From a virus (Duplodnaviria > Caudoviricetes), in IMG/VR virus record IMGVR_UViG_2596583697_000001, positions 32,001 to 96,000 of that record: a stretch of DNA of 64,000 bases; one strand, written 5' to 3'. Below, piece by piece: positions 2,729 to 51,600 of the stretch (its first letter is position 1; each line of letters starts with the position of its first letter). The notes beneath the pieces were generated by a model. The model was not told the origin of the DNA, ran no database searches, and saw only the letters and a program-made list of their open reading frames with translations. The translations under genes and the position numbers were made by a program.

Positions 2729-3001
2729 TTACTTTACGGCTTCTTTTAACGCTTTACCGGCTTTGAATTTAGGCGTTTTTGTCGCTTCAATGTGAAGTGC
2801 TTCGCCCGTCTTGGGATTCCGACCTTCTCTGGCAGCTCTTTCGGCAACTTCAAATGTGCCAAAGCCAACTAACTGAACTTTCTCACCCTTTACCAATTCC
2901 TCAGCAACAACTTCTGTTAATGCCTTCACAAATATCTCTGTATCTTTTACCTGTAAACCTGTCTTGGTAACAATAGCGCTGATTAATTCTGGTTTGTTCA
3001 T
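2729..3001 (-). CDS. hup: HU family DNA-binding protein
   Basis: MNKPELI...VQLVGFGTFEV...RAAREGRNPKTGE...PKFKAGKALKEAVK; start moved to ATG 3001 after AAGGAG. Confidence 0.95.
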   Translation of the reverse strand: MNKPELISAIVTKTGLQVKDTEIFVKALTEVVAEELVKGEKVQLVGFGTFEVAERAAREGRNPKTGEALHIEATKTPKFKAGKALKEAVK

Positions 3002-28859: not shown

Positions 28860-29837
28860 CTGCCAACGAAAGAGATATTTTAACTATAAAAAGTAAAAGG
28901 AGAATGTGAAATGAAGTTAATAGAAAGAGTTTATGGTTTTGTTATCTATGAATTAGACGAAGTAATGATAAATAAATTTGGAGGAAAATACTTCCTGTCA
29001 CAAGCTGAAATATCTGAATATTGGTTGAAAAATCATTCGGTGGAAGAAACCATTTCCGAATTAAAATCATATAATTACGAGGGTATTTTTCAAACAAGGT
29101 TGGAGGCTTATTATCAAGCCAATTTAGTAGAAATGGAACATCAATATAATTTACTTAAAAATAGCATTAAGGAGACTTGTGAGAAAATGAATAATAGAAC
29201 TGACGTTAACTGGTATGAAATATCTGAATAAAAACAAGATTATATTGTGAAGATGGAGGTTGAGAAGATGAGAAGCGAAGACAGATTACAAAGTGTTTAT
29301 ATAGGAGTTGTTGCCGGGATTAAATGTTGTAAAGAAGGGGAAAGGTCAGATTATAACAAAGGGAAGATGGCAGCATATAGCGAGGTACTTAGCGCAATGG
29401 GTATAAATATTGAAGATGTATGCGTTTTGATGGCAAGTGTATGAGCCAATAAATCCACAATTTCAAGCAAGAAAAGGAGAGTAAACGTGAAAATTAAAGA
29501 GAATTTAACAGTAAGAGAAGCAGAGGACTATGCAAAAGAGAACGGATATAATAAGGTGGCATTTAGCCTTAAGATTAACGATAAATATGTCGTAAGTGGA
29601 AAATATTTAGACGCATACTATGATCTCATTGAGATCCCAGTTCTCGGAAGCGGATTTACAAGATTTGCCGATTTATGCAAAGAACATGGGGAGCGAAATT
29701 TATCTATTGATATTATAGACGAAGAAGAACTTAAAAATAGTATATCTTTTGATTTTATTATCAGGGGTAAATTTGACAGTATTCCAGAAGAATACAAAAT
29801 TGCTGAATAAAATCAGGATTTGAATGGAGGTAATATC

Positions 29838-30866
29838 ATGACATACCATGAACAAAATGATATCCAGAATATAAAAAAACTTAGAAGTATTATATCTGCA
29901 TTGCCAGCTTATTGCGAAGACTTCTTTCGGGGAATCGAGCCAAGGACTTCCTCGAAGACTAGGATTGCTTATGTGGCCGATCTGAAGCTATTTTTTGATT
30001 ATCTGATCAGAAGTGGTCAAGTAAAAGATATGGAGTCAATTACTCTTGATATGCTTTCAGGCTTGAAAATCATTGATTTTGAAAAGTATATGGAGTGGAT
30101 AAAATGTTGGACTGATGATTCAGGTAAAGAATATACCAACGGAGAAAAAGCTATTGCAAGAAAGTTGTCTACGTTGAAAGCCTTCTACAAGTATTTTCAG
30201 CAGAACGAAAGGATAGCCACTAATTCAGTATCACTTGTGCAACCACCGAAACTACGTGATAAGGAGATTATCAGGCTTGATAACGACGAAATGAAAGCAT
30301 TTATACAGGCGGTAGAAACTGGAGGTAATTTAGAAGGAAGGGAACGTGCCTTCTTTGAAATAACACAGAAGCGAGACTTTGCAATAATCATGTTGATTCT
30401 TACCACAGGAGTCCGTGTTTCTGAATGTGTTGGTTTGGATATTAATGACGTAGATTTCAAAAACAGTGGAATTAGAATCTATCGGAAAGGAGGAAAAGAA
30501 GAAACAGTATATTTCAGTGATGACACCAGAGAGGCGTTGGAACCTTATTTAGAAGAAAGAAAACAGACCGAGGCAATTAAAGGGCATGAGAATGCTCTGT
30601 TTTTATCTCTACAGAACAAACGAATATCAACCAGAAACGTAGAGGATTTGATTCCTAAGTACGCAAGGTTGGCAGGAATCCAGAAGAAGGTTACGCCTCA
30701 TACACTACGTAGAAGCTATGGAACGGCCTTATATAACGCTACAGGGGACATTTACCTAGTTGCTGGTACATTGGGCCATGCAGATGTGAACACTGCGAAA
30801 CGGCACTATGTGGCATTGGAAGACGAGAAAAAAAGAGAAAATAGAAATGCTGTTAGGCTGAGATGA
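29838..30866 (+). CDS. Tyrosine recombinase (XerC/XerS-like), catalytic residues intact
   Basis: TGVRVSE (R), RKGGK (K), PHTLRRS (HxxR), LGH (H), RHY (Y); ATG 29838 after GGAGG; flanked by palindromic sites at 29807 and 30890. Confidence 0.9.
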   Translation: MTYHEQNDIQNIKKLRSIISALPAYCEDFFRGIEPRTSSKTRIAYVADLKLFFDYLIRSGQVKDMESITLDMLSGLKIIDFEKYMEWIKCWTDDSGKEYTNGEKAIARKLSTLKAFYKYFQQNERIATNSVSLVQPPKLRDKEIIRLDNDEMKAFIQAVETGGNLEGRERAFFEITQKRDFAIIMLILTTGVRVSECVGLDINDVDFKNSGIRIYRKGGKEETVYFSDDTREALEPYLEERKQTEAIKGHENALFLSLQNKRISTRNVEDLIPKYARLAGIQKKVTPHTLRRSYGTALYNATGDIYLVAGTLGHADVNTAKRHYVALEDEKKRENRNAVRLR

Positions 30867-32371
30867 TGGAAGTGGGTGATTTGCTCCCAATAAAAGCAGT
30901 CTTTGATGAGAAAGAGAGGAAGACATTGTGAAGTATAAAATAAATTGTAAGTGGATACTCAGGCATATTCCGAATTTAATTATCAGAGTAATAACTTGTG
31001 ACAAATATTATATATGTGAAAAGTGTAATTCTATACATCGGAGAGATGGAAAAGAGCTTAGAATGGATATAGATCAGAAGCCGTCTCTATTATACAAAAG
31101 TGTAAGTTTTGAGTGCTATGTTAAACAGCAGCGGGAAGTGGGAGAACTGCTAAGGATGTCAATGTTTAAACAGTTACCATAAAACAACCTCTTAATAAGA
31201 ATGGAGAAAAAACAATATGAGTAAAGATAAGCAGCCGGTATTAAACCACGGAGACAAGATAATTTATAATGAAAACGATCCACATGTATGGTATGATAAC
31301 ATGAAAGAAGCACTTGAAAATGCAGGATTTACATTGTCTAAGGAGGTGGCGTAATGGCAGGACTAATTGTTATTATTTTAATAGTTGCATATTACAAGTA
31401 TGCAACTCGTAGGCCTAGATACGGTACCCAAGAGTATCTCGACTGGAAATATAAGAATTACCATGGCGGTGGCGAATATATGAAGTCATTAGAGAAGAAG
31501 AATATGACATGTTCATATAAAGATATCCCAATGACTCCTTCTGAAAAAGAAGCTTATAATAAGCATGAAAGAGAAAATGGAAGACCTGGAATTGAATAAT
31601 CTAAAATTGTAATCAAACCTAGATTTTGTAGAAAGTGGTGAGAACATGTGGAAATATTATATAGAAATTTTGACTGGTAGCTGTACAGGAGATTATGTTG
31701 AAGGAAAAGAGGTCCCAGGTGATGGTATTCCCGTTTGTGCCGATTTAGCAGTAGCTAAGTGGTTTGATTCACCAGATGAATTAAATAAGTGGGCAAAAGA
31801 AAATACATCGTTAAATCTTGAAGAGGGTGAGTATGCAATTTATGGAGTATATTATCCTGAACTAAAGGAGGAAGCGGTATGACAATTTGGGAAGCGGAAA
31901 AGGAAATTTTGAAAGCGCAAACACCACAGGAGATGGATGAAATTACAAATGGTTTTGATAAAAAGGACTTACAAAACATTGTTAAATTGCTTGTAGATAG
32001 AATGACTCCTGAGAATCTAAATAGAAATGAAACTATCAATGCGGATTTTGATGTCAATGATATCACTAAAGGAAAGAGTAAAGAATTTATAAGACAGTGG
32101 ATCGATAAACATTATAACTAAATCGACATTTGATCTTTATAGATATGGAGAGATACAAATGAATAAAATAATCGACTATACGATTACCGAATCGGATCTT
32201 GTAGGTATGGATGAAATATCTTTGGCCGATATGTTTCTATATGCTGATAGAGATAGAAAAGAATTTGAAGTTGCCGAAAAGATTTATTGGTGGTGTGTAA
32301 AAGAAATAAATAGAAGATTAGACGCAGGTGAGACTTCTATTTACCAAAATTAACTACAGATTATATTTATA

Positions 32372-40909: not shown

Positions 40910-43001
40910 TAAAGAGCAAGTCAATGAATACGATTTCAAAAACATAGGAGTAAAAATTAAAACAAAATCATTATTTGGTGAGGAGAAAAAGAAAATGGGA
41001 AAAGAATTAACATATATAAATAATTACGGATTATGGAAAGTTACTACGGAAGGTGACTGTGAAGGTAAATCAACTAGAGATTTAGGAATACATAAAGGCT
41101 ATATTGACGAAATTGCTTTTGCTTTAGCAGATAAGTGTTTCTATTCTCTAAATTTTAAATATTTATTTGAATCAGAATACAACAAAATATCAACTCCAAA
41201 ACGTAGTGAGGTAAGCGTTACGTTAGATATTGACTCCGGAACGTGGGATTTATCAAGCGAAGAACGGGTAAAGTGGGCGAAAAAATTACTATCAGGAAGA
41301 GATGTTGATGTATCAAAAGGACAGTACTATGCAAGTTTTGTAATTAAAACGAGCAAAAAGACTGTAGAGGATATTAGAAGAGAGGCTTTCAATAAACTCA
41401 CAAAAGAAGAAATTGATGCATTGGGAATAAGATCAAAGGATAATTTGATAAGGAGAAAAATATGCTTAGTAAAGAAAATATAATGGAAATTATTGAAGAT
41501 CATCAGAAAGAAATTGATGAGTTGAAAACCGAATTAAAAAATACATCTAGTAAGATAGTCATCGGAGCCATTGAGAACAGGTTGTCATTCTTGTACGATA
41601 ACCAATATAGATACAAGATGCAAGCACGAGCGTGGGGATTGATTGAGCTAGATTAAATTAGGATTTCCCGGAACAGGAGGAACTATGAAGAAAGGAATCA
41701 AAGAAAGAGATATTAGGGATTTTGAAAAGCAATGCCTTAAGCTTAAGAACGTAATGGATAAGATAGTGGATTATGCTCCAGAAGCTAATTTATATGTAGA
41801 CGGTGCTGGCAGTATACATCTAATGTGTGATAGTAAGCATGAAGGATTTGGCGGAAGCCCTTCGCAAGATAGCATTGTCGCGAGTGTTTCAGTAGGATAC
41901 ATTGATTGTGGTGATTGGTGATTTAAACTGAAATTTGAACTTGATTAAAGGTGCATTTTATGAGGAAAGGAGAAAATTAAACAATGGAATTAAAAGAGTT
42001 TAAAGGTAGACATTTATTAAGTGGAGTGGAATATACTCAGCACCAAGAAAGAGAGGGTGAAGAGGATTGGGAAGATTACGGAAATGATTGTCTAATTTGT
42101 ATTGATGGAATTAATTATTTGATGATTGAAGACTTAAATGATGGGTATAGAAGCAGTATGTTAGATCCGGAAGTTACCGACAGAGAAATCAAGAATAGTT
42201 TTAAGGATCAGGAAGTGTTCATTAAACATCGGACTTATGGTTCTTACAGTGGGGAAGCTGCTGATGTAATGGAAATTTATTCGATGTCAGGTGATTTGAT
42301 TTTGGAGGTTGGAACCGAGAATATCGGAGATTATTATCCTGGAGCAATATTTGGCTATTATCCTGAAAATATGGACATCAATAAGATAGGATAAAATCGG
42401 AATTTTCTAAAGAAAGGAGCTGTGTTAATGGATGTTGTGGTTCAGTCAGATTATCAGGACATATATAGAATTACTGGCGGTGTCTTACTTGTAGTAAATA
42501 AGTTTAAACAAAAGGAAATTGATGGAGTGAAATATCCAAGAGTGAGTTACTGTAGAAGGAATAACTCAAGATTATATAAACAAGGCTGCCAGAATCATTT
42601 AAAGATATTGACAAAAGAATACATAAAAGAGGAATCCTGTTTCGGGCCAGCATGGAGTGTGCCATTAGGAACAGTATGCTATTGCGACATACCAATTGAA
42701 ATTGCACCTAAAGATGAATGGGAGTATCAGATCAAAACAAGTGGAGAGTCATTTTCCGGAAGAGATGAAAATATGATTGACTTTTTGAGAGAAATCGAAT
42801 CATTAATTAAAAAGACAGATAGAGGAAGTTTGGTCGCCGACTCTACCTGTCAGTAGGCAACACTCAGCGGATAGAATATAACATTTCTGTTGGCTTATTT
42901 CAAGCCAGTTATCCATGTATAAAATTATAATGAAACTCCGCTTTCTTCAGGTTTATAAAAACAAATAGTAGATACACACAATACGTTGAGGAGATGATTA
43001 A

Positions 43002-43961
43002 ATACTACAAATATTAGAATTATTCGGGGGAATTGGTTCTCCTAGAGTTGCGTTGAGAAACCTTGGTGTGCCAACAAAATCAATAGATTACGTAGAAATA
43101 GATGAAAAGGCAGTCAGAAGCTACAATGCAATGTTTGAAAATGAATTGAAGTATATAACTCAGTCTGTCGTTGGTTGGAATTTAAGGCCGGATATTTTGA
43201 TTCATGGCAGTCCATGTCAACAAGTCTCAATTTGTGGTTGGATAAGCCCAGTTGGAAGCCCAAAAGGAGCCGATGAGGGGTCAGGAACTGAATCTTCGCT
43301 TATGTGGGAAACAATACATATCATTCAGCAAATGGGTAAATGGAAGCCCAAAGTTGTTATTTGGGAAAATGTTAAAGGTGTTAGGTATAAGGGAATGAAA
43401 GATAATTTCCAAAGATACCTATACGAAATGGAACAGTTGGGATACACAAATAACCATAAATGTTTAGATGCAAGAGACTTTGGAATTCCACAAGCGAGAG
43501 AAAGAGTGTTTACGATCTCATGCTTAAATGGCGAAAAGTTTGATTTTGATAAATTAAAACATGTTCCAATGAGACCTTTGAGCGACTTTCTGCAAGAAAA
43601 AGTAAGCGATGCTTATAAAGTTACACAGCCAAGTATACTTAGTGCAATTGGTAGAACCAAAACAGCAAAACGTGCAACCGTTATTAGTGAATATGCATAC
43701 ACAATTACTGAGAGACAGGATAGGTGTCCTGCTCAAATAATTGATTGTGGTAATGGAGACTACCGATTTTTAACAGAACTGGAATGTTGGAGATTATTTG
43801 GATATTCTGATGAAGATTATTATGCAGCCGAAAGAGCTAATCCTAAAAAGAAATCAGCCATTGTAAACAGAGCCTTATATAAACAGTCGGGGAATAGCAT
43901 TGTGGTGCCTATTTTCGAAGAAATACTTAGAGTACTACTAAGAGATTACATGAAGTATTGA
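43002..43961 (+). CDS. DNA (cytosine-5) methyltransferase, probable ATA start
   Basis: Motif I LELFGGIG lies upstream of the track start; GSPCQ, WENV, QARERV, GNSI; TAA immediately before ATA 43002, GAGGAG 8 nt upstream. Confidence 0.88.
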   Translation: MLQILELFGGIGSPRVALRNLGVPTKSIDYVEIDEKAVRSYNAMFENELKYITQSVVGWNLRPDILIHGSPCQQVSICGWISPVGSPKGADEGSGTESSLMWETIHIIQQMGKWKPKVVIWENVKGVRYKGMKDNFQRYLYEMEQLGYTNNHKCLDARDFGIPQARERVFTISCLNGEKFDFDKLKHVPMRPLSDFLQEKVSDAYKVTQPSILSAIGRTKTAKRATVISEYAYTITERQDRCPAQIIDCGNGDYRFLTELECWRLFGYSDEDYYAAERANPKKKSAIVNRALYKQSGNSIVVPIFEEILRVLLRDYMKY

Positions 43962-44594
43962 AATTAAAGATTTATCAAGAAAGGAGAAATTGATTGAAAA
44001 CTGTAGCTAACTTTAGATGTAAGGAATGTGAAGATGTTTTTCGGGCAGAATCCGGAAAATTTACGAAGTGCAAATGTGGAAAGTGTGAAGTCGAACCAGG
44101 TGACATTGGTAGCACGGCATATAAAGGAAGCGTGTGTTTCGAGAGACTAAAAGATGGCGAAGATCACACATACTACGATGAAAATGATTTTTATATTATG
44201 GAAGGCGACGTTCTAGATTTATTTAACAAGACGAAGCTGATGTGTGAAGAACTAGATTTTCACATATACGAATCATTCAAGAAAGGTGAAGATGAGAGTG
44301 AATATTTGTCTTATCTGAACTACACAAAATCAGATCTAATTAACCATAATGAGATGAATGAAATTCAATTCTGTGTGAGATTTGATAAGTATTTTAATGA
44401 GAAGGATTACATTAGCCGCTTAGAATCATTTTATAACTTTCTTTTATATTTAAAAAGTAACCCAGAACTTTTAACCAAGAGAAAAGAATTGTTAAAATAT
44501 TCTGATGAAAAAGATGTTGAGTGGAGTAGAGAACAAGTAAAAGATTATGACTATAAGTTTTATTTTTAGAATAGAAACAGAGTTCAATTAAGAT

Positions 44595-45649
44595 ATGGAG
44601 GTAAAAATTATAGAGACAATATTACATACGAATAATGGAAAAATCATAAATGGAGATAATCTAGGCGTATTAGATGCATTAGAAACCAATTCAATTGATA
44701 GCTGCATTTCAGACTTTCCATATGACTTATCGTTTATGGGCAAGAAGTGGGACAACACTGGAAACTTCTATGAATGGAATAAGGAGAGAGCACTAAAGTT
44801 ACTTAAAGTGATGAAACCCGGAGGGTATGTGGCGATATTTGGACATCCAAAGACAAATCATAGAATGAAGTGTGCTTTTGAAGATTCAGGATTTAAGATT
44901 GTCGAAGAGATTGATTGGGTCTATCTGACTGGGATGCCAAAGAATCAAGATATAGGCAAGCTCTTTGATAAAGCTAATATAGTAGAATTAGCAAAGAAAT
45001 GGAGTGGCTGGAAGACTTCTGGCCTGAAGCCCACACATGAGCCTATCACAATATTCCAGAAACCATTAGAAGGTACATATGTCCAAAATATTAAAAAGTA
45101 CGACTGCGGTGGAATGAATATTGATGCTTGCAGAGTTCCTATATCTAAGGAAGACGTTGATATGCTAAATGCCAAAGCATCTAAAACACCAACCACTAAT
45201 TATTCAGATAGAGATGACCGTATCTACGGTAAGTATGCAGAAGATAAGGCCATGCCTCCTAACGAGTTGGGAAGGTTTCCGTCAAACATTGTTGTAGATG
45301 AGTTTGTCGCGGAATTGTTAGATGATCAGATAAAAGATGGAAGCAAATATTTTACTGTCATCAAATATGAACCAAAGATCTCGCCTTCAGAAAAAAACTC
45401 CCCAATGGTGAGCGCAATCCACATGTCACACCAAAACCTGTTGAGTTAATCAAATGGCTGATTAAATTACTTACTCCAATTAACGGTACAACCATTGATA
45501 TCACTGCGGGAAGCTGCACTCATGCTGTGGCTTGTGAAGAACTCAATAAAAATGATGGCTATAGATTGAGATACATAAATGTTGAATTGATGAATACTAA
45601 AGAAGAACCTTACTGTAGTGTAGGAGAAATGAGAGTAAAAGCAGTTTAG
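44595..45649 (+). pseudogene. Beta-class N6A/N4C DNA methyltransferase split by a -1 frameshift at an A7 run (45391-97)
   Basis: Frame 0 has SDFPY, KPGG, LKPTHEP; the -1 frame continues HVTPKPVEL...TIDITAGSCT (SAM-binding) to TAG 45649. Confidence 0.75.
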
Positions 45650-46170
45650 GATAAAATGAAAATTTCAAGAAATTAATTTAGGAGAGCAAAAATAAATGGA
45701 AAGAAATCATAGATTAACAGTTAAAGAAATGATAGAGGAATTATCTAAATGTAATCCTGACGCAGAGGTCATTGCAGAGAGTCCATATAGGGATCAATTT
45801 AGAATATATACCGTAACTGAAAGTGATTGCAAGTCAGTCATTTGGCTTGAGGCTTAGTAATTGAAGGTATGATTTTAAGGAGGGGTTATGGAGAAAGCAA
45901 AGGTTTTTAATACACCAAAAGAAATTGTTGAATACTATTTTTCTAATAGGATTAGTAATGCTTGTGGCGGAGGAGTTATCGGTTGCCCATATGAACAATG
46001 TTATTCCGGATATATAAATTTACTTGAAAATGAGTGCGCTAAGTATTGTAAGGGTTTTGAAGCTGGTAAGACTCCGGACGAGATATGTGGAGAATGTTGG
46101 AATCAGCAGCTAAAGTAACTTTAAATTGACGAATTCAAAGGAGGGATAATAGAGGAACAGTAATAATTTA

Positions 46171-46214
46171 ACCCACATAAATAGCGCTTATTAGAAAAAG
46201 GCATTTATGTGGGT
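46171..46214. terminator. Hairpin between convergent genes
   Basis: ACCCACATAAAT...ATTTATGTGGGT 12-bp stem. Confidence 0.6.
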
Positions 46215-46230
46215 CATACAATCCATTTTA

Positions 46231-46896
46231 TTAGTATTCTCCATCTGCAGCGATAACTGCTTCTAATGGTGGTGTATCTCCAACAAGACCAACCGCAAAA
46301 ATGCTATAAACTGCTCCGGGCATAAGATATACATCTGGTATTGTTAATACAACCTGATTGCTTCCAGTCGGTCTGACTTGAAGGGTATAAGTTCCTGGTT
46401 TTACAGCAATGTAGTCAGTAAATTGTGTATAGGATACATCTTCAAAGAGTTTCGTTCCGTTTGTCAGTGTAATGTCAACTGCGGGAGCGTTTGGAGACAG
46501 ATGCACAAACCGTACATATGAAGTATTTCTCATTCCCATTGGCATATTAGGCATAAACATTTCAGGGAAAGGCATTAAACTTATATTCGCTAATTCTCCA
46601 GCAGCCGCTATCGTAAATGCACTGTCTTGTGGAATGGTAACATTTGTATCAATGACAGCAGTTGTTTGATTTCCTGCTGGATACACCTGAATCTGATAAT
46701 TACCGGGCATAATTGGAATGTAATTAGTTAACTGTTTATAGGAAAGCCCTTCTGCTATTATATTATTATTTGCATATATGTCCACCGCTGGAGCATCAGG
46801 AGAGGCGTGAAGAATTCGTACGAAAGACATCTGACGTGCTTGCTGCATGGAATAGTAAGAGTTACCTTGATGGGTATACATATACATAATTCTCAA
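46231..46896 (-). CDS. DUF4397-domain protein (moron-like, opposite strand)
   Basis: Two repeats VRILHASPDAPAVDI / VRFVHLSPNAPAVDI. Confidence 0.85.
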   Translation of the reverse strand: MRIMYMYTHQGNSYYSMQQARQMSFVRILHASPDAPAVDIYANNNIIAEGLSYKQLTNYIPIMPGNYQIQVYPAGNQTTAVIDTNVTIPQDSAFTIAAAGELANISLMPFPEMFMPNMPMGMRNTSYVRFVHLSPNAPAVDITLTNGTKLFEDVSYTQFTDYIAVKPGTYTLQVRPTGSNQVVLTIPDVYLMPGAVYSIFAVGLVGDTPPLEAVIAADGEY

Positions 46897-47207
46897 CCTT
46901 AAGGGTTTTGATATATACTATGAAATGCGATTTGTATTGTTACTATTAATACAAAGTATTTTAAAATTTTTTTAACAGGCCGTCATGCGTTTATTATATA
47001 AGTTTGATGAAATATCAACTACGAGTGATTTAGCGGAATTTATTATTAATAAGTCATTTTAGAGAGTGTGATTAAAAATGAATCAAGCAACCATTATAAA
47101 AGAAACAGTTAAAAAGATGTTCTCAAAGAGTTAATTAAAGACCTACAAGAAGAACGTATTTATCTACTTGCCACGGTTACAGAAGGTTAGTTGATATATA
47201 GATGAAA

Positions 47208-47496
47208 GTAACGTTTCCAAGTCATTACTAATATTAATCCGGTAAAATTTATGTATATTGCCTTGTTTGTCAAAGCCTTTAATTATTTGTCTGTCTAACC
47301 AAAAATAACCCTCTTTTAATTCTGATAATTTTTCACCAGTGGTATCTCGTAGGAACGTGAGATATTCGTTAAATATTGGATTCACTCAATACCTGAGTGT
47401 AATGTACATTACTTTTTAACTAGTATTATCTTTCCCTTTCTTTATTTTTGACGTTTGCAACCGTCAGTTTATTTTATAAGTGGGATGAAACGTTAC
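47208..47496. mobile_element. 289-bp inverted segment carrying the leader and first 56 codons of the PAPS-reductase-like gene
   Basis: Inverted 10-bp repeats GTAACGTTTC (47208-17) and GAAACGTTAC (47487-96); both ORFs read ETL in frame across the repeat. Confidence 0.8.
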
Positions 47497-48620
47497 ATTT
47501 AAGTAAAGCAAAAGATTATCGGGATATTAACGATATTGAATTAGCAAGTTGGAATGACCTTATTGAGTTAAATAAGGAACACTTAGAAAACATAGAATCA
47601 GATTCTTTAAATTTAATCAAAGATAAAATGGAGAAATATAAAGGACATGATTCGCTAATTCCTGTGTCAATGGGAAAAGATTCTATGGTTGTATCTCATC
47701 TTGTAAGATCTTTATATCCCAACACTAAGGCAATTTTCAATAATACATCACTTGATTGTGCCGACACATATAAAATGGTTAAACATTTTCCTAGCTGTGA
47801 AATTATGAATCCCGACAAAGGATTCTATCAATATGTCGCATCAGACCATATGATACCAACAAGATTTTCGAGATTCTGTTGTAGAATTTTCAAAGTTGGG
47901 GTTATGGTTTCAAAATTAGGCCACGAACACCCATATCTCATGTGGATGGGCATGAGAAACGAAGAATCTGCTACAAGAAGTGGCTATACAGATGAATGGA
48001 TTAATGAATCAGAATGGGGGAATACGAAATGGCAAGGTATTCTTCCTATTAGAAAGTGGACAGAGTTAGACATTTGGCTATATACATTATGGAGAAATAT
48101 TGATATCAATCCTAAATATAAAAAGGGATATAGTAGATGTGGCTGCCATATAGCTTGCCCATATTATAACAAATCCACATGGACATTGGATAAGTATTGG
48201 TATTCAAAATCGTATGATAGATGGAGAAATATATTAGAGAAAGATTTTATTGAAAATAAGAAATGGATTGTGATGAATTGTACAATTAGTGAATATTTAA
48301 CACAAGCTTGGAATGGTGGAATTTATAGAGACGAACCCACAAAAGAAGTTATAGAAGAATTCGCTCAATATAACAATCTTCAATACGATATTGCCGAAAA
48401 GTATTTCAATAAATATTGTGAGAATGAATGTAAAACTCAATCTGGAAAAATCAAGAAAATTAAGGACAAACAGGTACTGGGAATGAACATGAAACTACAT
48501 GGGATAAATACTAATAAGTTTTATTGCAAATCGTGTTTAATGAAAATGCATTATATTGACAATGAACAATGGGATAAGTATATAGATGATTTTAAAAAAT
48601 CAGGATGTGACTTGTTCTAA
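47487..48620 (+). CDS. PAPS-reductase/DndC-like PP-loop protein, 3' part (5' part inverted at 47385-47217)
   Basis: VSMGKDS PP-loop, RFCC, GMRNEES, PIRKW, RCGCHIACP; Cys-rich C-terminus. Confidence 0.8.
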   Translation, partial: ETLHLSKAKDYRDINDIELASWNDLIELNKEHLENIESDSLNLIKDKMEKYKGHDSLIPVSMGKDSMVVSHLVRSLYPNTKAIFNNTSLDCADTYKMVKHFPSCEIMNPDKGFYQYVASDHMIPTRFSRFCCRIFKVGVMVSKLGHEHPYLMWMGMRNEESATRSGYTDEWINESEWGNTKWQGILPIRKWTELDIWLYTLWRNIDINPKYKKGYSRCGCHIACPYYNKSTWTLDKYWYSKSYDRWRNILEKDFIENKKWIVMNCTISEYLTQAWNGGIYRDEPTKEVIEEFAQYNNLQYDIAEKYFNKYCENECKTQSGKIKKIKDKQVLGMNMKLHGINTNKFYCKSCLMKMHYIDNEQWDKYIDDFKKSGCDLF

Positions 48621-51600
48621 TGAAATAATACTTTGATTGGAGAATAAAATGGCGACAGAAAAACAAGATATGTCTAATTGCTGTAAATGATGGGAGGAAA
48701 GATGGGTGATTTAGGCTGGGTTATAATAATTGCAATTGCTGCAGTTGTGGCAGTAATTGAAAAGATATGTGATACATACAAGGAAACTCATAAAAAGGAC
48801 AAAGATAAATAACATTAAAATCAACATTTAATGGGGAAATACGAAATTTTCAAAGAAGACTATATGAAAAATAGGAGGATTAAAAGATGAGATATATTTC
48901 AGATGATAACAAGGTATTTAATTCAGAACAGGAGTGTTTAAATCATGAAAAGGCTATTACTTCCGAAAGAGCAAAGCGTGAAAAATTACTTGCTGAAAAA
49001 AATAAGCGCAGTGATGAAGTAAGGAAAATAGGCAATGATTTTGTAAAACTACATAAGAAGTTCGTAGATGACTACGGTGAGGAGATTGCTTTTGATAACG
49101 ACTTGGAGTCACTGGCTTCCTGGTACAGTACGCTTCCATTTTTATTTAGGTCAGGTAGATTTGGTATATAAATACGGGATAAAAGAACAGTTTGATGGAA
49201 GGAGGGAATAAATTTGTTTAGCGGAATCTTAGGTGGGTTATTTTTTGCATTTATACTTGCATTTTTCGGTGCAGACAGTGCATTTTTGAAAGCAGTAGAG
49301 CCATTTATAAATGTAAAGTTAACCACTACTCATTGGTACATAATGTTTGCAATTATTGGTGGGATTGCAGGTTTATTTGGTAGAGACAACTAAAGATATA
49401 TTTTATGAGAAAAGAGGTGAATTTAACGAAAAGAATGTCAAGAGATTCGTGGGAGTGGAAGAAGATTCAATATTTTAAGAACTTGTCTATCAGAAAATTC
49501 TATCCAAGGTTTTTGTATTATAAGTGCGATAAATGCGAAGAAGAGTTCATAAAAGAAGCAATGTATGAGTGTGCGGAACCAAGTATTATTGGTTGTTCTT
49601 GGAATTACCACAAATATGGCTGTTCTCATTGCTTTGATAGCATCGATGGCTTTCAGAACTGGTTAATTAAAAGCGGCAAGATCCTTGTGGAAGATGACTT
49701 TAATGTCCGCGGAGATCTGAACAAAATGAGAAAATTGCTATTTAAAAAGAGGGAGGGGTTAAATGTGTTTGGCAGGTTAAGAAAACTACTTGGCGATTTG
49801 TTAGAACCAGAAATTGAAACATTCCAAAAGAAAGAAGTAATCTTTAAAACTACAGATTGTAAATTACATAAAAATTCCTCATATAAATGGTGTAGAATCT
49901 CTGGATTGATATCCCGAAATTTTGAAAAATACGCAATGATTGGAATTACTTCAGACGGCTACTTGAAAGATGACGATGGACTCCTATTTCCATTGAATAA
50001 TATCATTTCTATGCAGTGGAATTTAAGTGACGAAACGGAAAGAATTAGTAGATATAAAGATCAGTATAAAATTTGGTTCAGTGACAATGAATTAGCAGAA
50101 ATGGAATTACCATAAAACAGTACTTTTCTGAGAAAGGAAAATTTAATGAATGTAATGAAAAATATACGGTTTATTGTTACAAATGAGGAGATCTTAAGTG
50201 AAAGAAGGGTTAGTGTAGTATATAATTTCAATGAAAATGACTACTGCGTAACGTTTAAGCCAGAAGATTCAGATTTTTCTATGGGTAATAGCTTTGTTAA
50301 AGCATGGATTGAGGAGAAAAATCCGCATATCCTATATCTTGACGTAGAAGAGGAAGATAACTCTAAAATTAATATATCCTCATTTAAAATTAATTATTTA
50401 GAGAGAACGTATTCAATAACTAGAAATAGTGTTGAAAATGAATTGTGGAGGTCTAAATGAATAAAGAAGACGAATTAAAACTTGAAGCAGCCATTAAGGA
50501 AAACATGGACAAGGTAAGATTTGATGGATTATCTGCTGGAGCAAAAGGGATTTCCGGTGCTATCTTGGAAATTTGCAATGATAAGAATATTAAGAATGAT
50601 ACAGTCAGGATCAACAAGATTAGAGATTTCTGTATGACTGGACTTGGATTGAAGAAAGTGTAATGATATAAATAAGGACGGATTAAATGAAAAATGATTT
50701 AATTAGTGTATTGAAAAAAGAGGGGAAATATGTATTACTCGTAAAAGTACGTAAAGAATTTGATGGCATTGTAATGAGAAACGATATTATAGAATTAGAT
50801 AAAAATGATATTCTTGATGTCGATGTACAAAATCAAATAGATAAATATATGTCACAACATGATATTAGAAAAATTATATTAAATGATAATGTTGTTTGGG
50901 AAGCATCAAAGAGAACGGTTTTGGATATGACAGGGCAAAATGGACGAATGTATTAAACTTAATAGAAACATTCTTTTATAGTGAAAGGAGATGTATAAAG
51001 TGATTGATATTAAAAATTTAGGAAAACAAAAATATATTTATCGCATTTATGAAACAGAAGACGATGTTCTTCATCGTGAAAAATATCCGATAATCTATAT
51101 AAACAGCAAGGTTATATATTTTAAAGATGCCAGAAAGAAAGAATATTTAAACTATACTGTGACTTCAAATGTATTAAATAACTTTACTGAATTCTATAGA
51201 AAATCGTGGATTTTTAGTCCTGGTTGGAGTCCATGTTTTGATAAATATTTTTGGAATTGTGACCCAGACATCAAAGAAATCTATGCTGATTTGTTGGTAC
51301 AAAGGGATGTACTTAGAAAGAAAGATGCCGAAGAAAAAAGAAAGTTTCGTCTTGAAAAAGCAAAAAAGGAGTATGAAGCAGCATTAAAGGACGCATGTGT
51401 ATAATATATCAATTTGCCACGAAAGGAGAACGAATGCCAATAAGTTATTTACATAGTAATCCAGATATTAGAGGAGAGGTCTGTCCAATTTGCGGTAAGC
51501 GGTCATGGAGCATATATAAATGTGATGATTGTGGGAAGGTATTTTGTAAGTATTGTCGGCCAGATCTTGTAAATTTGCTTGATGACGACAGGTTTGGTGA

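Follow-up and report, generated by a model that had tools for sequence, protein, structure and literature searches.

The question raised by this locus is why a phage gene should carry its own 5′ end backwards. The stretch analyzed here, referred to below as the window, comprises 64,000 nucleotides (nt) of Caudoviricetes DNA (positions 32,001 to 96,000 of IMG/VR record IMGVR_UViG_2596583697_000001) and belongs to a provirus record of 114,483 bases, whose completeness is estimated at 69%. It contains a gene for a 3′-phosphoadenosine 5′-phosphosulfate (PAPS) reductase-like enzyme, of which a 289-bp segment carrying the leader and the first 59 codons lies backwards relative to the remainder. An earlier reading of the letters alone (hereafter the sequence-only reading) had offered two explanations, a phase switch or the footprint of a recombinase. 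Comparison with related loci indicates that it is very probably a programmed site-specific inversion switch, a partial intergenic inverton, acting on an accessory gene carried by a large prophage of Lachnospiraceae-type gut bacteria. In the window the switch is in the OFF state.

The two parts of the gene were found in two open reading frames (ORFs) on opposite strands. The minus-strand ORF (47164-47385, 73 amino acids [aa], GTG start) reads MNPIFNEY...NISNDLETL and comprises the detached 5′ end of the gene, with 59 genuine N-terminal codons followed by an out-of-context tail of 14 codons. The plus-strand ORF (47448-48620, 390 aa) contains KWDETLHLSKAK, reading MTFATVSLFYKWDETLHLSKAK..., and consists of the gene body, codons 60-433 (47497-48620), joined to 16 unrelated codons that begin at a TTG at 47448. 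GAAACGTTAC was in frame in both ORFs, and on re-reading of the window all statements made previously about their shared sequence held. The invertible segment runs from core to core at 47208-47496. Inverting it by script produced one open frame of 433 aa, reading ...NISNDLETLHLSKAK..., as had been predicted for a continuous gene, and this product differed from a natural 433-aa protein (P0001) at only 2 of 433 residues. The detached fragment likewise agreed with the N-termini of P0001 and of L002, a related locus with an intact gene, at 100% or 97% identity. Homologs were indeed single proteins starting MNPI(F/Y)NEY and uninterrupted through the junction, since P0001 and P0002 (433 aa, 95% identical) both read ...SNDLETLHLSKAK across it. 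In an isolate contig assembled from public run X4 (an approximately 95% relative), 47208 was joined to 47497 on opposite strands with 10 letters shared. A blastn search of 46200-48900 against a phage collection gave no match.

Short inverted repeats marked the two ends of the segment. The arms AAAGTAACGTTTC (47205-47217) and GAAACGTTACATT (47487-47499) were complementary at 12 of 13 positions with 269 nt between them, and the 10-mer GTAACGTTTC within them occurred twice in the window, in inverted orientation, at 47208-47217 and 47487-47496 (0.09 copies expected; none of 100 shuffles reached two). In the ON form one repeat is intergenic, upstream of the leader, and the other intragenic, at codons 56-60. 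Both sites are hybrids in the window, as the sequence-only reading had recognized: the left site, TGAAAGTAACGTTTCC (47203-47218, TGAAA-GTAACG-TTTCC), has an intergenic outer half and an inner half from inside the gene, and the right site, TGAAACGTTACATTTA (47486-47501, TGAAA-CGTTAC-ATTTA), corresponds to codons 56-60 of the gene when ON. After the flip the left site regained perfectly symmetric arms, and the 95%-identical ON locus L002 naturally has the same site upstream of its intact gene, with symmetric ATGAAA/TTTCAT around GTAACG; its intragenic site reads TTGGAAA-CGTTAC-ATTTAAG. The 6-nt spacer varied by lineage (GTAACG in the window and L002, CGAAAC in L003, CCAATC in the commonest class and CAACGC in L046), yet within each locus it matched, inverted, between the two sites, and the flanking GAAA/TTTC was constant. 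Tyrosine-recombinase core sites are typified by a matching spacer between short inverted arms, and the form found here, TGAAA-N6-TTTCA, has the inverted arms and the identical overlap of 6 to 8 nt of an Xer-type core. The position of the exchange could be narrowed in a closely related pair of loci, L019 (ON) and L020 (OFF). The base just outside the shared 11 nt differed between the two sites and kept with the outer flank in both states, whereas the inner flanks moved along with the segment, which places the exchange within 10-11 nt comprising the spacer plus one arm. Within the protein, the intragenic site falls where the sequence varies most (alignment consensus ...DDLxxxxxxxxKxY...), a stretch that in the AlphaFold model has no regular structure and lies between strands 44-52 and 59-62 of the N-terminal domain.

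Both orientations were present among natural relatives. A protein search with the 390-aa ORF returned 954 homologous clusters at E ≤ 0.001, and the N-termini of the best 120 were classified. Of these, 67 were ON forms beginning MNPI... (66 by motif, plus P0041, reclassified by eye), 37 were OFF-type, and 16 were ambiguous short forms that start inside the aligned part. In OFF-type proteins an unrelated extension replaced the N-terminal domain at about residue 55-57 of the nearest ON relative, and within the best 120 clusters their junctions represented at least six sequence lineages (ETLHLSK, ERLDCTK, ESTNCSK, ERMDCSV, LETVNCS and KLSIN). At the DNA level we examined 59 loci besides the window, from 4 species-representative genomes and 55 viral contigs, with the state assigned by tblastn using N-terminal and body queries. 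Forty-five were ON, 11 were OFF and 3 were without a 5′ end; the window and its copy L001 were also OFF. The OFF loci included two isolate genomes, L003 and L004 (labeled Lactonifactor and Eubacterium segne), and nine viral contigs, among which some gene bodies were duplicates (L003 of L009, L004 of L017, and L012, L013 and L014 of one another). In all 13 OFF sources the N-terminal fragment was intact, on the opposite strand and directly upstream, with no sign that these copies were decaying into pseudogenes. Inverted repeats of 9-15 nt, 269-284 nt apart, were found in 27 of the 57 scorable sources (13 OFF and 14 ON, counting the window and L001; L022 was too close to a contig end to be scored), including every OFF locus. 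The remaining 30 sources, all of them ON, had only chance-level repeats at other spacings.

Copies in opposite states could be almost the same in sequence. L019 and L020 agreed at 3000 of 3000 nt on the right-hand side of the switch and, with one of them turned round, were 99.4% identical in the segment, and the segments of L027 (OFF) and L055 (ON) were 99.7% identical. A maximum-likelihood tree of 52 gene bodies (omitting rows with a body shorter than 1000 nt or no N-terminus) required at least five changes of state, the well-supported branches also forced five, and one set of identical rows contained both ON and OFF. The nearest relatives of the window, P0001 (2 aa differences) and L002, were ON. 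Five or more changes, together with identical bodies in both states, rule out a single ancestral accident, and repeated flips with intact fragments in all OFF copies argue for ongoing switching. Of the two explanations offered by the sequence-only reading, the phase switch is thus by far the better fit, with the inversion seen in 11 of 59 loci and 37 of 120 clusters and at least five flips. Its further suggestion that the intragenic site was a cryptic one used by accident did not stand, as the same segment was inverted in several lineages with different, locus-matched spacers. Given this recurrence, the number of flips and the intact fragments, the intragenic site is a maintained partner and not an accidental one.

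We propose that the unit is a module at 47203-48636 consisting of a leader (about 100 nt) and a gene of 433 codons that encodes an enzyme of PAPS-reductase fold, with one site upstream of the leader and an inverted partner of the same spacer in a variable loop at codons 56-60. A crossover inside the shared 10 nt would flip the leader, the ribosome-binding site, the start codon and the N-terminal domain together. One such flip would detach the 5′ part from the gene body, giving the OFF arrangement of the window, and the reverse flip would rejoin them. Switching would then be reversible within a clone, and the OFF form would presumably yield no active enzyme.

The segment also carries a conserved leader (47386-47486, minus strand), predicted to form three hairpins. 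The first (47383-47399, minus strand; CACTCA/TGAGTG) holds the GTG start, with AGG in its loop (RNAalifold). The second is a palindrome, GTAATGTACATTAC (47399-47412, minus strand), which reads GTTATGTACATAAC in the commonest class and has one covarying pair, and the third, centered on TTGCAA (47449-47466, minus strand), has compensatory changes at three pairs. Over the roughly 100 nt from start codon to site the leader was conserved to a higher degree than the protein (mean column identity 89% in 22 loci), and its fold energy was modestly better than that of shuffled sequences (z of about -2.4). No Rfam family matched 46000-49000 at E values up to 1. On the plus strand, a pattern match identified a terminator-like hairpin with a T-run (47448-47477) just ahead of the truncated body in the OFF orientation; it could block read-through in the OFF state, a role kept here as a hypothesis because the stem pairs better on the other strand in the commonest lineage. 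Another conserved leader, unrelated to the first, was observed about 150 nt upstream of the gene in many related phages (L006, L010, L024, L045 and others); it has a TTG start, and some phages with this leader have an 8-nt inverted repeat (GTTTCTAA/TTAGAAAC) at equivalent places. Because the OFF-type protein P0092 (junction LETV) seems to come from this lineage, the switch may exist with two different leaders.

An inverted leader might also have a product of its own. The OFF orientation could drive the 73-aa peptide or neighboring genes leftward, or the gene body could be made with another, hydrophobic N-terminus, so that the switch would have two outputs. The leader and N-terminal domain are intact and directed at a minus-strand DUF4397 gene (46231-46896), and a conserved hydrophobic extension, MYITFYLGLSLPFF...MAFATTIYVVI, recurs in OFF proteins of the commonest lineage. 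However, that extension is the antisense of the conserved leader and has no ribosome-binding site before it, the left flank is mosaic with no gene conserved there across loci, and the DUF4397 gene has a promoter-like site of its own (11 of 12 matches). We regard a two-output switch as improbable.

Returning to a simple ON/OFF inversion, the acting enzyme is probably a tyrosine recombinase of Xer type, to judge from the TGAAA-N6-TTTCA core with its matching spacer and from the recombinase content of the 114-kb record. Three tyrosine recombinases were found in this record, and neither resolvase-type (PF00239) nor IS110-type recombinases were detected in it at its estimated 69% completeness, PF00239 having matched in control genomes; with no resolvase-family gene there, a serine invertase of the Hin/Gin/Cin kind is not indicated. 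The only one of the three in the window, a candidate invertase, is an Xer-like tyrosine recombinase (29820-30866, plus strand; PF00589, E = 7e-37), whose best NCBIfam matches were XerS (199.5 bits against a cut-off of 267), XerA, XerC and XerD, all below their cut-offs. G000 and 10 of 12 switch-bearing records (all except G002 and G005) encode a recombinase of 330-357 aa at a distance of 17-34 kb upstream, on the same strand. Matches to the window recombinase were weak or absent in several complete switch-bearing records, a second recombinase type occurred both with and without the switch, and homologs of the window enzyme (48-55% identical) in three isolate genomes were on contigs other than that of the gene. 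The previous proposal that the recombinase at 29838-30866 performs the flip is not supported by these comparisons, though it may hold: the protein is Xer-like by profile, but no single phage recombinase lineage accompanies the switch. Since no recombinase clade tracks it, a host Xer-type enzyme is as likely as a phage-encoded invertase. In one record (G009:C1:57118-58121) a tyrosine recombinase of the second type was divided between two frames (271 and 105 aa), perhaps by a frameshift; the phage record is a complete one.

The switched gene encodes a member of the PAPS reductase/PP-loop family, with a PF01507 (PAPS_reduct) match well above threshold (E = 3.8e-23, 82.8 bits against a cut-off of 22.5), a match to phrog_424, and the corresponding fold. 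Its AlphaFold model had a mean predicted local distance difference test score of 84.3, with residues 1-62 forming a confident small domain (blocks at 87-96), and the top Foldseek matches were PAPS and adenosine 5′-phosphosulfate (APS) reductases (E = 8e-8, probability 1.00). The 73-aa fragment on its own matched no Pfam or PHROGs family. Cysteines C187, C188, C276 and C280 were invariant in 43 homologs, as were four C-terminal cysteines; the paired cysteines and the CxxxC motif presumably resemble the iron-sulfur site of APS reductase and DndC. The 433-codon enzyme likely has an iron-sulfur cluster, and modification of DNA or nucleotides is a plausible function. PADLOC matched the protein to BrxP at E = 1.6e-33 over profile positions 74-360 of 779, which is the PAPS-reductase part only. 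BrxP and BrxC together are reported to make phosphorothioate DNA in gut bacteria (PMC12914056). The window protein shares the PAPS-reductase domain with the phosphorothioation enzymes BrxP, DndC and SspD, and differs from BrxP in having its own N-terminal domain and a C-terminal four-cysteine region. At 433 aa and lacking the DUF4007 part, it departs from the BrxP of BREX (bacteriophage exclusion) type 4, in which the PAPS-reductase domain is joined to a DUF4007/SspB-like part and the gene neighbors brxC, brxZ and brxL. No BrxC-, BrxZ- or BrxL-like partner was detected among 10 neighboring ORFs in Pfam, and PADLOC analysis of four of them gave only methylases.

Several observations weigh against a programmed switch on a DNA-modification gene. 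The repeats are short (10-15 nt), the evidence for orientation comes from assembled sequence, and counts across metagenomic contigs are not independent, as several loci are duplicates or near-copies. A σ70 scan gave 11 hits against 15.8 in shuffles, and with no promoter excess we claim no promoter within the segment. No recombinase gene lay within 7 kb of the switch, and when ORFs within 7 kb of 39 loci were clustered no neighbor was conserved, the gene itself being the sole ORF common to all. The mid-genome recombinases formed at least three clades (a few ORFs in this tree, such as G000_B, were picked automatically and may be wrong), and the same repeat sequence was found with different clades. 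Most phages without the repeats also had a mid-genome recombinase, only the L036 class (G019, G020) being without one. The similarity to BrxP, as noted, covers the PAPS-reductase part only and comes with no BrxC-like partner among the neighbors tested.

Some of these points would suit a one-off accident, in which a cassette-type site recombined with a chance look-alike inside the gene and left a dead gene in a fossil arrangement. The short repeats and the lack of an adjacent invertase gene speak for such an event, as does the poor fit of the intragenic site to the family of sites described below (two mismatches in the ON form); and assembled contigs of the four public runs did not reveal heterogeneity within a clone, none of them spanning the window's own junctions at 99% identity or more. 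An accident nevertheless fails to account for the same inversion in several lineages with different, pairwise-matching spacers, for at least five independent changes on the tree with identical bodies in both states, for an intact detached N-terminal ORF in 13 of 13 OFF sources, or for the ON state of the nearest relatives, P0001 and L002, and we consider it very unlikely. That an assembler simply reversed the segment is scarcely credible: inverted repeats can mislead assemblers and the window is known from assembly alone, but repeats of 10-13 nt are far below assembler word sizes, the OFF form recurs in independent assemblies (isolates L003 and L004, nine viral contigs and 37 protein clusters), and the junctions always fall exactly in the shared core.

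The programmed switch draws one of its two sites from a dispersed family. As the sequence-only reading had proposed for the left site, it fits the pattern TRAAA-N6-TTTYA, which with up to one mismatch occurred 87 times in the window against 54.2 ± 7.7 in shuffles (none of 100 reached 87). Between 20 and 53 kb, 37 of 62 sites were located within -16 to +25 nt of the end of a plus-strand ORF, compared to 8.6 ± 2.6 at random. Family sites at the ends of many small plus-strand genes usually lay about 10 nt before the next ribosome-binding site, and two of them flanked the Xer-like recombinase gene, at 29808 and 30891. Stop codons were considered as a cause of the family and rejected, the left arm coinciding with only 4 of 70 ORF stops. 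Downstream of the switched gene, directly after its stop codon, a further family site (48621-48636, TGAAA-TAATAC-TTTGA) marks the end of the module, and DNA similarity between the window and L002 was limited to 47205-48634, from site to site. Contigs from runs X1 and X3 were 100% identical to the window (from 46700 and 47049, respectively) up to 47216 and then continued into unrelated DNA, and the left flanks of otherwise near-identical loci were mosaic. From this site-bounded similarity, the X1 and X3 breaks and the mosaic flanks, the left site is not just an end of the switch but also a true breakpoint at which phage variants have recombined. The X1/X3 continuation restores a canonical family site and brings a ribosome-binding site with it, making this a third junction found in nature at the left site; its sequence was not found in the window, the whole record, any of the loci or the viral contigs. 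Also on this side of the gene, a 24-nt direct repeat (46989-47012 and 47467-47490, 21 of 24 identical) ends in a GATGAAA half-site, and its upstream copy resembles a relic of the leader end plus half a site, with the likeness fading beyond about 35 nt.

Exact family sites numbered 9 near L002, 6 near L003 and 11 near L005, and there were none in most 21-kb loci of the commonest switch class, so the link between switch and cassette sites holds for the lineage of the window and not for all. The sites of L005, a metagenome-assembled genome labeled Paludibacteraceae (Bacteroidota), fall within 13 kb, although its gene (62% identical) has an ordinary ribosome-binding site, no leader and no repeats. 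The 16-mer of the left site was found in at least 119 stretches of metagenomes, and none of the 119 was related to the window.

Two DNA methylase genes are situated 2-4 kb upstream of the switched gene. No inverted repeat comparable to that of the switch was found in 42300-45600, and there was accordingly no sign of a second switch on the methylase genes in that interval. A 16-nt inverted repeat (44184-44199/44632-44647, 88% complementary, 432 nt apart) extends from the end of a 191-aa ORF to the start of an N6/N4 methylase and is probably due to chance. In the cytosine-5 methylase ORF (43053-43961) the S-adenosylmethionine motif ILELFGGIGS is in frame upstream of the called TTG start, and within 42985-43100 no in-frame start codon follows a TAA. 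A ribosome-binding site with an ATG at 42994 is in another frame, which stops after seven codons. This methylase looks frameshifted near a short A-run, and it may be off too, by another route, or may reflect an assembly error.

Among known systems, the closest in design are the partial intergenic invertons, or gene-altering inversions, of bacteria (Milman et al. 2023, PMC9881135; Chanin et al., bioRxiv 10.1101/2023.03.11.532203). These share with the window a short segment with one repeat outside and one inside a coding sequence, a change in the encoded product, and both orientations in nature. The window switch differs in being carried by a phage, in being a plain on/off switch without a swap of alternative gene ends, and in its very short repeats (10-15 nt) with an Xer-like core. 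The PAPS-reductase family is not mentioned in the main texts of PMC9881135 and Chanin et al., though the inverton lists in their supplements may hold examples. Our literature search, which did not extend to supplements, found no paper in which such switches were tied to PAPS-reductase genes or to accessory enzymes of phages.

The RecV-type switches of Clostridioides difficile (flgB, cwpV, cmrRST) and fimS of Escherichia coli are inversions of a few hundred bp by tyrosine recombinases that turn expression ON or OFF, and their invertase may be encoded elsewhere and act on several switches. The window resembles them in the inversion of a leader segment, probably by a recombinase of tyrosine type; theirs are chromosomal, lie in 5′ untranslated regions or promoters with the coding sequence uncut, and govern surface or motility traits. 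In phage Mu (G segment, Gin) and P1 (C segment, Cin), serine invertases acting with an enhancer swap the C-termini of tail fibers and so alter host range. Mu is also cited in PMC12823448. As in Mu and P1, where the inversion generates mixed progeny, a phage-borne invertible segment alters a phage gene product in the window, whose record has no serine recombinase and where inversion turns an enzyme gene on or off.

The sites themselves are most reminiscent of Xer/dif, pdif-like modules and integron cassettes, in which inverted arms surround a 6-nt spacer that must match and the sites border exchangeable modules. The window has the same core form at module borders, and its recombinase scores best against XerS, XerA, XerC and XerD; it differs in having conserved arms of only about 5-6 nt and in that all Xer matches are below the curated cut-offs. 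An Xer-type site with an intragenic partner used as a gene switch was not found described in the literature searched.

Inversion switches are a classic bacterial means of keeping mixed populations, and to our knowledge those of phages are known almost only for tail fibers. Here, a family of large gut phages keeps a switch on a gene for an enzyme of DNA-modification type, and about half of the sampled switch-bearing copies were off. Since gene callers report the OFF form as a protein of 390-410 aa whose N-terminus is spurious, as in 37 of the best 120 clusters, many copies in databases are mis-modeled. The locus also shows directly, from natural sequences, that recombination does take place at the short TGAAA-N6-TTTCA sites bordering genes in these phages, which makes the proposed exchange of modules testable. 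As a tentative explanation, which we hold to be possible and well short of probable, gut phages may hedge on DNA modification by a BrxP/DndC-like enzyme, maybe placing sulfur or another mark on the backbone or bases, for which the system of Xer-like sites and recombinase that bounds and exchanges the accessory gene cassettes would have been co-opted by means of a maintained intragenic partner. The pay-off would be bet-hedging: a single lysogen or burst would give both marked and unmarked progeny, useful where some host defenses spare modified DNA and others attack it. If the enzyme does mark phage DNA, the switch would be a phage counterpart of the phase-variable modification systems of bacteria, and would bear on how phages handle defenses that read DNA marks.

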